Positions 1,950 through 5,697 of a DNA stretch of 5,697 nt are shown piece after piece. Under the pieces are notes generated by a model, which was not told the origin of the DNA, did not search any database, and was given only the letters and a program-made list of their open reading frames with translations. This DNA is from a virus (taxonomy: Duplodnaviria; Heunggongvirae; Uroviricota; Caudoviricetes), in IMG/VR virus record IMGVR_UViG_2695420871_000005; one strand, written 5' to 3'. The stretch's first letter is position 1; each line of letters opens with the position of its first letter. The position numbers were made by a program, and so were the translations under genes.

Positions 1950-1998
1950 ACTCATCTGACCACCAGCACGTTTAACGTCCTGTGCCGTTTTTCAGGTA

Positions 1999-2022
1999 TA
2001 AAAAAACCCGCTCATCGGCGGG
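1999..2022 (-). terminator. Intrinsic terminator downstream of the ORF6N-like gene
   Basis: Minus strand: stem CCCGC/GCGGG (2022-2007, extendable by A-T pairs) with a 6-nt loop, followed by TTTTTTTAT (complement of the A-run at 1999-2006). Confidence 0.6.
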
Positions 2023-2100
2023 TTTAAGCTGTGTGGCGTAGTAACCACTCTTAACAGGATATTCAACTTTTTACGATCGTAAAGTTTTCGGAAAAAATTT

Positions 2101-2664
2101 TTAAAACCGCATCAACCGCTCCACCAGTTGCTCTTTACGGGCAACGATCCACCCGTGTTGCTCCAGATAAAATTTAAACCGTTCCAGAGTACATACCATC
2201 GCATCGGCGGGTACCTTTTCCGTGAACTCAACCTGACCGTGTTTATCGAAGTGGCTCAGTAATGCGCATCCATCATTTTCGATAGATGTGTTTTGTGCCG
2301 CTGGTGGCTGTTTCTGGTTGAAATAACAGTCTTCCAGTTTTTCGAACACTTCCCACGCCTGATCGGTTTCGAGCATTTTGGCGTGACGGGCTGCGCCACG
2401 TTCTGTCCAGAGGATGAGGGAGCGAACGTTACGGGCAATTTTCACAGAAACTCTTAAAGAGTTTTCGTTCTTCAACTCTCGTAACGCATCACCTTCTATC
2501 AGGAAAAAATGTTTACCTTCTATAAACCGTTCTTTGTTTCGATTGAAATTGTTTGTCAAACGCTGGCGCTCTGTTCCGTACAAATCAGCCAGCAGCTCTG
2601 TTGTCATGACAGGAAGATGGTTATGCGTAAGTGACGGGAGTTTTTCAATAGACGTGCGATTCAT
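2101..2664 (-). CDS. ORF6N-like phage protein (KilA-N/Bro-N superfamily, antirepressor-like DNA-binding N-domain) with an unassigned C-terminal domain, about 187 aa
   Basis: Start chosen at ATG 2664-2662 (AAGGA RBS 7 nt upstream); the ORF track's longer N-terminus (GTG at 2862) has no RBS. Motifs LADLYGTERQRLTNNFNRNKERFIEGKHFFLIEGDALREL and LWTERGAARHAKMLETDQAWEVFEKL fit my recollection of ORF6N. The C-terminal 80 aa have no recognisable family. Confidence 0.7.
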   Translation of the reverse strand: MNRTSIEKLPSLTHNHLPVMTTELLADLYGTERQRLTNNFNRNKERFIEGKHFFLIEGDALRELKNENSLRVSVKIARNVRSLILWTERGAARHAKMLETDQAWEVFEKLEDCYFNQKQPPAAQNTSIENDGCALLSHFDKHGQVEFTEKVPADAMVCTLERFKFYLEQHGWIVARKEQLVERLMRF

Positions 2665-2870
2665 AGACATGTCCTTTCGAATATTTTGATTTACCCCTTT
2701 TGAGAGGGTGACCGGGCGCTCAAAACCGTCGAAAGTCGGCGGGCGTATTTCCATTGCTGGTATTGTATTAGCCGCACACCCGGTCATAAACCAAGAATTC
2801 TGGACACAAAAAAACCACATGGCTATCGGGTGTGGATACCGCTTTCGAGGTGTTTTGAGCACCGCGGGGA

Positions 2871-2899
2871 AATGTAAACTGCAAACCTGAAACTGTCAA
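2871..2899 (-). promoter_or_regulatory. Candidate sigma70 promoter for the ORF6N moron
   Basis: Minus strand: perfect TTGACA (2899-2894), 17-bp spacer, TACATT (2876-2871). It would give a roughly 200-nt 5' UTR. Confidence 0.4.
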
Positions 2900-3024
2900 C
2901 ACCGTCAGGTTCCAATCATCGGGTGGTGAGACGCACAGGGTTGGAACTACCGGGAAACCGACCGGCGAGCTTTTCAGCTCCCCCATGCGCCCCACCATAA
3001 TTCAGATGTGCGCGTGCATACGAC

Positions 3025-3049
3025 AATAAAAAACACGCTCGCGGCGTGT
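3025..3049 (-). terminator. tR'-like intrinsic terminator downstream of the late promoter
   Basis: Minus strand: stem ACACGC/GCGTGT (3049-3033) with loop CGCGA, followed by TTTTTATT (3032-3025). Confidence 0.6.
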
Positions 3050-3110
3050 GTCTGTCGCGGTCTCTATCCGGGGTTCCAATCCCGACGCCAGATTTTGCTG
3101 GCGCGTGAGG

Positions 3111-3140
3111 AATATAGCCCCGGACAATGTGTCTGGTCAA
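3111..3140 (-). promoter_or_regulatory. PR'-like late promoter (target of Q antitermination)
   Basis: Minus strand: TTGACC (3140-3135), 18-bp spacer, TATATT (3116-3111), starting 4 nt after the Q stop codon. A hairpin CGCCAG/CTGGCG lies in the early transcribed region (about 3083-3104). Confidence 0.6.
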
Positions 3141-5641: not shown

Positions 5642-5697
5642 TGGATTTGCCCCTATATTTCCAGACACCTGTTATCACTTAACCCATTACTGGCTTG
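5642..5697 (-). mobile_element. IS2-family terminus (IRR-type end), diverged variant, inverted relative to the left-edge copy; the body lies right of the window
   Basis: 5642-5690 is the reverse complement of 13-61 with one mismatch (C at 5668 vs T). The inner 7 nt diverge, and the differences are silent or conservative in the transposase frame (A-S-N-G vs A-C-N-G), suggesting a distinct functional IS2 isoform rather than the same copy. Confidence 0.7.

Follow-up and report, generated by a model that had tools for sequence, protein, structure and literature searches.

The region between the antiterminator gene Q and a cluster of four tRNA genes in a 5,697-nucleotide (nt) stretch of phage DNA (IMG/VR record IMGVR_UViG_2695420871_000005; the whole stretch is called the window) probably represents, with a rough probability of 0.78, an antirepressor cassette gated by an immunity RNA, of the same kind as immI (c4-icd-ant) of phage P1 and isrK-orf45-anrP of the Gifsy-1 prophage. 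Its single gene encodes a protein of 187 amino acids (aa) with an ORF6N domain, and is preceded by a predicted promoter (P2), by a c4-like RNA of the sRNA-Xcc1 family, and by two sets of short boxes complementary to this RNA, one of them reaching the Shine-Dalgarno (SD) sequence of the gene. The elements, their complementarity and its covariation among related phage loci were observed directly, and the features that an earlier sequence-only reading had described for this region were all present where it had placed them, on the minus strand (Table 1).

The ORF6N N-terminal domain proposed by that reading was recovered in a hidden Markov model search, in which Pfam ORF6N (PF10543, KilA-N clan) matched residues 13-97 with 74.4 bits (E = 8.9e-21; gathering threshold 27.8 bits), spanning profile positions 5-86 of 86. 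The protein was also matched from end to end by PHROG 2379, a family named "anti-repressor" by annotation (E = 4.4e-85; residues 2-187 against profile positions 3-187, of 187). It was 49% identical over 184 aa (E = 6e-58) to AnrP (STM2616) of Gifsy-1; conserved between the two proteins are the ORF6N domain and, in the centre, the block LILWTERGAARHAKMLETDQAWEVFEKLEDCYF. Given this family and this homologue, the earlier statement that the function was unknown no longer holds. Expression of AnrP in Gifsy-1 raises the mRNA of the antQ operon (the early operon) and induces the prophage, and the small RNA IsrK, supplied in trans, activates anrP translation 114-171-fold in the Table 1 experiments of that study and 139-fold with the basic fusion (Hershko-Shalev et al. 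2016, PMC4825925). Judged by its sequence, the gene appears to be a new member of a known family, the AnrP-like ORF6N antirepressors, and the gene itself is largely explained.

The C-terminal ~70 aa, in which no family had been recognised before, matched no Pfam or NCBIfam family and just PHROGs of unknown function. In the AlphaFold model the predicted local distance difference test (pLDDT) values were 85-90 for the N-terminal domain and 54-68 for the C-terminal domain; a Foldseek search against PDB gave nothing with E<0.1, a PDB sequence profile search with the C-terminal domain gave nothing, and the viral fold matches were KilA-N and antirepressor proteins. Elsewhere this C-terminal domain is found behind different N-terminal domains (PHROGs 995, 25059 and 22471, plus a Rha-domain protein), a shuffling that would be at least compatible with a target-specificity module. 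A homologue search with the C-terminal 73 aa recovered 17 proteins, mostly fragments and one joined to a Rha N-terminal domain, and was judged uninformative on function.

An Rfam scan of the gene strand from Q to the ORF6N gene detected isrK, c4-a1b1, C4 and sRNA-Xcc1, each over its own gathering score. The sRNA-Xcc1 match (RF02221, gathering score 53) is an 84-nt RNA laid out as c4 (two inner hairpins within a closing stem, plus an ACCC tail), and its fold is accompanied by compensatory changes at 12 of the 17 consensus pairs. The loop of hairpin 2 (a', CUUUCGA, 2735-2729) is complementary to both copies of UCGAAAG, one upstream of the RNA and one overlapping the SD, whereas the junction (b', UUUUGAG, 2725-2719) is complementary to CUCAAAA at 2858-2852 and at 2704-2698. 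In the in-cis fold the upstream boxes b1 and a1 pair with the 84-nt RNA. The possibility, raised earlier, that the long leader could itself be regulatory is borne out by this RNA and its covarying target boxes. The labels a and b are our own and need not correspond exactly to the names used for P1; a' and b' were defined by columns of an alignment of related loci (A3, see below), which replaced earlier RNAfold loop calls in which some elements were misfolded. Sliding RNAduplex energies against the leader had hinted at the upstream box; they were inflated by long loops and were not used as evidence.

To compare these elements across phages, sRNA-Xcc1-type elements were gathered from viral contigs by their hairpin-1 motif (120 loci, 93 distinct elements), and the 64 loci with comparable spacing were aligned (alignment A3), each RNA being matched with its own flanks and in 4032 cross pairs. 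Complementarity of at least 6 nt between a' and the 24 nt 5' of the start codon was found in 88% of the own pairs and in 8.9% of the cross pairs, and complementarity of at least 7 nt with the start-codon region in 72% and 2.9%, respectively. For b' and the stretch from the RNA to the SD, where the downstream box lies, the corresponding values were 84% and 17% (at least 6 nt); for the upstream region they were 96% and 9.7% with a', and 69% and 13.8% with b' (at least 6 nt in both). This control is conservative, because near-relatives are included in the cross pairs.

Among close relatives, the loop, the upstream box and the SD box change together. The window and locus L005 combine the loop CUUUCGA with UCGAAAG in both boxes, antB of phage Nil2 and locus L029 combine CUACUUG with CAAGUAG, and Escherichia coli EC12 combines CUACUGA with UCAGUAG; in locus L058 the loop CUUUUGUG is found with ACAAAAG as upstream box and CACAAAAG as SD box. 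Box b also changes in step (UUUCGAA with UCGAAA; UUCUGAA with UCAGAA). Antirepressor-type N-terminal domains were encoded by 58 of the 84 first downstream open reading frames (ORFs), namely Bro-N (15), KilA-N (11), P22_AR_N (9), Rha (8), ORF6N (8) and AntA (7).

The elements of the cassette (module 2) follow one another in the order P2, b1, a1, a hairpin with a run of seven U (U7), the 84-nt RNA, b2, a2 overlapping the SD, and ATG 2664. The promoter, the terminator and the leader of ~200 nt (predicted transcription start site near 2864, to ATG 2664) that had been described from the letters were all found, and the layout of a moron, a predicted own promoter and own terminator around a single gene, is present in consensus scans. 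The claim that the cassette is self-contained stands as regards this promoter and terminator; it does not stand as regards the upstream side, where the cassette is fused directly to an IsrK-C4 module overlapping PR'/tR'. The promoter scan was by itself weak (5 promoter-like sites in the region versus 3.0 +/- 1.6 in shuffles); a -35/-10 pair occupied the equivalent place in 9 related leaders whose sequence had otherwise diverged, and phage Nil2 has an annotated promoter at the equivalent site 5' of antB. In the hairpin columns 89.6% of the cells were paired, versus 30-46% with slid partners, and double-change cells numbered 48, versus 14.6 +/- 6.2 in shuffles; the hairpin and U7 are likely the terminator of an IsrK-like decoy RNA of ~55 nt.

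From the homology of this layout with that of the known systems, we infer how the cassette would work. Transcription from P2 would start near 2864, and most transcripts would stop at the hairpin and U7, yielding a short decoy RNA with b1 and a1, while read-through would produce the 84-nt c4-like RNA, then b2 and a2, and then the ORF6N message. Pairing of a' with a2 across the SD, and of b' with b2, would block ribosome loading, so that no protein would be made in the lysogen. An excess of the short b1/a1 RNA would draw off the antisense RNA, the part played by IsrK in Gifsy-1, and translation would open; the protein, acting as an antirepressor or as an activator of the early operon, would then drive a prophage towards lytic growth. 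Late in growth, Q-modified polymerase from PR' would cross the whole cassette into the tRNA and lysis genes. An sRNA-Xcc1 locus of E. coli EDL933 gave abundant RNA with little ribosome coverage in an uninduced culture (PMC5331693), and lysogens of Gifsy-1 express IsrK and STnc1160 constitutively; both observations fit an immunity RNA made during lysogeny.

Several points weigh against the RNA-gated antirepressor. Each box pairing in the window is just 7 nt long, and a single match of this length could arise almost by chance; the argument is carried by the duplication of the boxes and by their covariation; the comparison set consisted of viral contigs and is biased to phage and to motif-bearing elements. 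That the promoter is active, that transcripts end at U7 and that the 84-nt RNA is processed are predictions. The last ~65 residues of the protein have diverged from AnrP (~25% identical in our own reading of the alignment), so its target may differ from that of AnrP, and for AnrP itself repressor binding is putative. Finally, no repressor gene is in view in the window, which is a remnant bounded by insertion sequence IS2 (see below), and the cassette may therefore have no cognate target in its host.

The sequence-only reading had leaned to lysogenic conversion or anti-phage defence. In that case the gene would be a true moron, accessory cargo expressed from its own promoter to the benefit of the host, its ORF6N domain serving merely in DNA binding. 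We consider this unlikely. The slot between Q and the lysis genes is variable among close relatives, as had been proposed, with Q followed directly by the tRNAs, by WYL and methylase genes, or by the ORF6N gene, and the gene does have its own promoter and terminator; the sole PADLOC match was to the candidate system PDC-S05 (E = 1.4e-7 to 2e-3). These PADLOC matches are weak, however, and limited to the N-terminal domain shared by these proteins (residues 19-115), whereas the antirepressor PHROG was matched over its full length and the homologue AnrP induces its prophage (PMC4825925). Moreover, the gene lies 3' of an immunity-type antisense RNA that is found family-wide before antirepressor genes, and control of an antirepressor by antisense RNA belongs to the regulatory circuitry of the phage in P1 and Gifsy-1. 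On a role in the service of the host, the sequence evidence points the opposite way, to a phage regulatory antirepressor.

A second alternative, to which we give equally little credit, keeps the RNA gating and takes the protein as a sequence-specific DNA-binding activator of the early operon instead of an antirepressor that binds a repressor. ORF6N is a domain of the KilA-N superfamily, viral KilA-N DNA-binding proteins gave the best fold matches, very weak PDB matches (E = 0.17-0.44) included the Ski/Dachshund DNA-binding fold, and the AnrP authors themselves propose an activating activity (PMC4825925). On the other hand, annotation assigns families of this domain layout to the antirepressors, and no DNA-binding data for ORF6N proteins were found in the literature examined. 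The Ant proteins of P22 and P1, which hold the equivalent position behind antisense control, reportedly bind repressors.

The antirepressor assignment takes ATG 2664 as the start, giving the same length as a 99%-identical Shigella sonnei protein (P0001), whereas the mechanically called ORF is 2101..2862; that the real gene is this ORF of 253 aa from GTG 2862, or one of ~215 aa from ATG 2751, with a coding leader, is very improbable. The frame is indeed open for 77 codons 5' of ATG 2664 in the window and the Salmonella entries P0005 and P0118 are annotated at 215-217 aa, but an in-frame stop interrupts the extension 3-9 codons upstream of the equivalent ATG in four relatives (L029, L034, L058 and L097), the extension has no Pfam match, the region is an RNA family match of 77 bits with compensatory changes, and the SD (7 nt 5' of ATG 2664) is rightly spaced for that codon alone. 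Both longer forms were rejected.

The upstream side of the cassette was formerly read as a PR'/tR' unit. Because its isrK/c4-a1b1/C4 module (module 1) is co-linear with the Gifsy-1 leader, this unit corresponds to an IsrK RNA and its terminator, the terminator stem (3049-3033) being the former tR', and PR' aligns with the isrK promoter of Gifsy-1 (TTGACA..CTATATT). The PR'/tR' unit of Q is an IsrK-C4 module minus its gene, and the whole region is a tandem of two immunity-RNA modules. The C4 RNA of module 1 has neither a gene nor an a2/SD box, and nothing complementary to its hairpin loop was found downstream; this orphan may be either a relic or an RNA acting in trans on the antirepressor module of another prophage.

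Two further observations concern module 1. An orf45-like ORF (2998->2768), which begins MVGRMGE... as in Gifsy-1, is 76 aa long rather than 45; it spans P2 as well as the upstream boxes, and its end lies within the sRNA-Xcc1 element. In the c4-a1b1/IsrK motif the best-conserved loop, GCAAAAUC of IsrK hairpin 1 (3092-3097), holds a -10-like CAAAAT, roughly positions +8 to +13 when counted along the PR' transcript; no complement to this loop was found in the C4 RNA, and it is speculation on our part that it might serve as a sigma-dependent pause element for Q.

Table 1. Features located in the window, in gene order
Feature	Coordinates	Strand	Basis or remarks
DnaB-type helicase gene	5540->4146	minus	first in gene order; a small coiled-coil ORF is next
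RusA gene	3892->3521	minus	
QuuD-like antiterminator gene Q	3531->3145	minus	Pfam Phage_antitermQ, E = 2e-52
PR'/PisrK promoter	3111..3140	minus	TTGACC-18-TATATT, just 3' of Q; scan, 10/12 matches
c4-a1b1 match	3117-3065	minus	Rfam, 50.1 bits
IsrK-type short RNA	3028..3104	minus	Rfam isrK, 77.5 bits; boxes b1 UUGGAAC (3079-3073) and a1 GAGACCG (3064-3058)
C4 antisense RNA, orphan	2919..3002	minus	Rfam C4, 71 bits; coincides with the start of the orf45-like ORF
b2 box of module 1	2909..2917 (2917-2909)	minus	GAUUGGAAC; Gifsy-1 leader homology ends just after
Promoter P2, predicted	2871..2899	minus	TTGACA (2899-2894)-17-TACATT (2876-2871); scan, 10/12 consensus matches
Upstream target boxes	2842..2863	minus	b1 GGUGCUCAAAAC (2863-2852), a1 UCGAAAG (2848-2842); complementary to the RNA junction and loop
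Hairpin and U7	2808..2835	minus	CCACA...UGUGG; conserved in nearly all 64 loci
sRNA-Xcc1-type c4-like antisense RNA, 84 nt	2702..2785	minus	Rfam RF02221, 77.4 bits, end-to-end
Downstream targets	2672..2708	minus	b2 CUCAAAA (2704-2698), in the loop of a small hairpin (2708-2694)
Second b2-like UCAAAA	2689-2684	minus	
a2 UCGAAAG	2680-2674	minus	overlaps SD AAGGA (2676-2672)
ORF6N antirepressor-family gene, 187 aa, AnrP homologue	2101..2664 (2664->2101)	minus	Pfam, PHROG, STM2616 identity
Intrinsic terminator closing the cassette, predicted	1997..2025	minus	stem 2025-2004 of 8 bp with 5 GC pairs, then a T-run
Four tRNA genes (Met, Arg, Thr, Gly)	1911->1601	minus	3' of the ORF6N gene
Phage-21-type holin gene, then lysozyme gene		minus	last genes, after the tRNAs

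All the genes of the window are on the minus strand. Its two ends are the inverted termini of IS2: a 49-nt inverted repeat (13-61 and 5642-5690, 98% complementary) matches the IS2 end, and the annotation "IS3-like element IS2 family transposase" is found in thousands of E. coli records. This repeat at the ends indicates a 5.6-kb phage segment bracketed by two oppositely facing IS2 copies. No complete E. coli genome covered 80% of the window, and the best match of the ORF6N protein was the Shigella sonnei protein; on these grounds, together with the IS2 ends, the window is an IS2-bracketed remnant of a lambdoid prophage. The first tRNA of the window was called Met (CAT anticodon), whereas the closest E. 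coli relatives (L125 and L126) carry Ile, Arg, Thr and Gly at this place; the window's first tRNA could be an Ile2-type (lysidine) tRNA. The 3' end of the holin gene is present twice, as a 99-nt direct repeat (62-160 and 723-821), and an ORF from ATG 211, whose start overlaps the lysozyme stop as ATGA, continues in frame into the holin C-terminus and runs into IS2. We take the start of this ORF to be the N-terminus of Rz, and the whole is presumably an Rz::holin chimera, a recombination scar.

Other arrangements were seen among the related loci. In five GC-rich, Xanthomonas-like loci (L013, L022, L075, L084 and L115) the RNA is followed by an ORF of ~80 aa that has no Pfam match and whose SD is complementary to the RNA loop (7-8 nt), and then by an ORF of ~100 aa. 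In L060 and L070 a small ORF overlaps the next one by 8 nt, which resembles the icd-ant coupling of P1, and the N-terminus of that next ORF appeared, by eye only, Rha-like in L060 and Bro-N-like in L070. Immunity-RNA modules often stand in series (L058, 2422-3753; phage Nil2, L002, 3390-4603), with isrK-C4, sRNA-Xcc1 and its gene, and again isrK-C4, and the coordinates given for Xylella De Donno list the same neighbourhood of isrK, C4 and sRNA-Xcc1 (PMC12189769).

A broader reading, for which we put the odds only somewhat above even, places the sRNA-Xcc1 family among the P1 c4 immunity RNAs, as a second branch that phage contigs commonly carry. Each copy would belong to a self-targeting module, made up of a promoter, a decoy RNA ended by a terminator of its own, the antisense RNA and boxes over a ribosome-binding site, that locks the next gene, usually an antirepressor; its two patches of 6-9 nt would be a rewritable specificity code, and so define heteroimmunity groups. 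Tandem or orphan modules, such as the gene-less C4 of the window, could allow one prophage or remnant to hold or release the antirepressors of others. The new part would be a second widespread class of c4-type immunity RNA with its own decoy RNA, RNA-gated control of antirepressors being of an already known kind. The present analysis gives a testable role to thousands of enterobacterial genes annotated as "ORF6N domain-containing protein" (5247 database homologues of the 187-aa protein), which lie in the slot of stx in Shiga toxin (Stx) phages. P1 c4, Salmonella IsrK/STnc1160 and Xanthomonas sRNA-Xcc1, so far studied apart, have one architecture and control logic in common. Should the antisense lock prove real, it would provide a prophage-induction switch that is independent of SOS and carries a short, mutable specificity code, and it would bear on cross-induction among co-resident prophages in Shigella and Shiga toxin-producing E. 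coli; the predicted "trans targets" of the sRNA-Xcc1 homologues of plant pathogens would also need re-reading.

Gifsy-1 shares with the window the position directly after Q, the promoter, the IsrK RNA and the C4-type RNA (isrK 77-79 bits and C4 69-71 bits in both), as well as the homologous ORF6N protein, also of 187 aa and encoded directly 3' of Q, and the logic of a short terminated RNA with boxes matching a downstream antisense element; the Gifsy-1 paper nowhere mentions c4 (PMC4825925). The C4/orf45 element of Gifsy-1 lies immediately next to anrP, whose ATG overlaps the stop codon of orf45 (AUGA coupling), and the gap from Q to anrP is 272 nt. In the window, by contrast, this gap is 480 nt, the homology to Gifsy-1 breaks after b2, the a2/SD box of module 1 is gone, and the orf45-like ORF stops 104 nt 5' of ATG 2664 in another frame, which leaves no coupling. 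Control of the gene would lie instead with the second module, which is complete in itself: it has a promoter, boxes, a terminator and a different RNA, of the sRNA-Xcc1 type. The C-terminal domain of the protein has diverged, and isrJ, present 3' of the gene in Gifsy-1, was absent from the window in the Rfam scan.

The c4 RNA of P1, described in work by Citron and Schuster in 1990 and by Biere et al. in 1992, is said to be cut from the operon transcript and to pair with two boxes at the ribosome-binding site (RBS), preventing antirepressor synthesis. The window has in common with immI a promoter, a1/b1 boxes, a structured RNA of ~80 nt on the same transcript, a2/b2 boxes at the RBS and an antirepressor-type gene, and with c4 itself a long closing stem, two inner hairpins, an ACC-type 3' tail and specificity in two short single-stranded patches. 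Of what would accompany maturation by RNase P, the window RNA shows a closing stem like that of c4 and the ACCC tail. This RNA, the one beside the gene, scores in RF02221 and not, as that of P1, in C4 (RF01695), which in the window is matched by the upstream orphan; the two families have an equivalent architecture, yet are not one family or clan in Rfam. The window has no icd-like leader ORF between the RNA and the gene, and the SD under its box belongs to the antirepressor gene, unlike in P1, where blocked translation of the leader ORF icd reportedly causes Rho-dependent polarity on ant. It also differs from P1 in the conserved terminator after a1/b1, and its ORF6N N-terminal domain places the protein in a different domain-level family from the Ant proteins of P1 and P22. 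The c4 control of icd-ant in P1/P7 immI is summarised in PMC12197685. On this comparison of sequences, the control system of the window appears to work like both P1 c4 and Gifsy-1 IsrK, while departing from each in two features of membership: orf45 coupling and the same RNA beside the gene for Gifsy-1, and an Rfam C4 match and an icd leader ORF for P1.

The antA/antB region of Stx phages (Nil2, 2851 and VT2-Sa; PA2-type phages) comes close to the window, antB of Nil2 lying behind an annotated promoter and an sRNA-Xcc1 element (79 bits), with ~80% DNA identity to the window over the leader and the part of the gene that encodes the N-terminal half, and with an isrK-C4 module just upstream, before antA. 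In these antA/antB phages the modules are in the nin region or near int and not after Q as in the window, and module 1 keeps its gene antA, which the window lacks; a' is CUACUUG in Nil2 and CUUUCGA in the window, and the C-terminal halves of the proteins differ.

The family of the sRNA-Xcc1 of Xanthomonas campestris (Chen et al. 2011) is presented in the literature searched as an integron-borne virulence sRNA that acts in trans under HrpG/HrpX control, and hundreds of trans targets have been predicted for that of Xylella. One paper reports a copy 5' of an ORF6N gene in APSE phages, with no mechanism proposed, and no literature linking sRNA-Xcc1 mechanistically to antirepressors was found. In the window and in the 64 phage loci, the loops of this RNA match instead the RBS of the next gene and an upstream duplicate of it, which is the behaviour of a c4-type module acting in cis.

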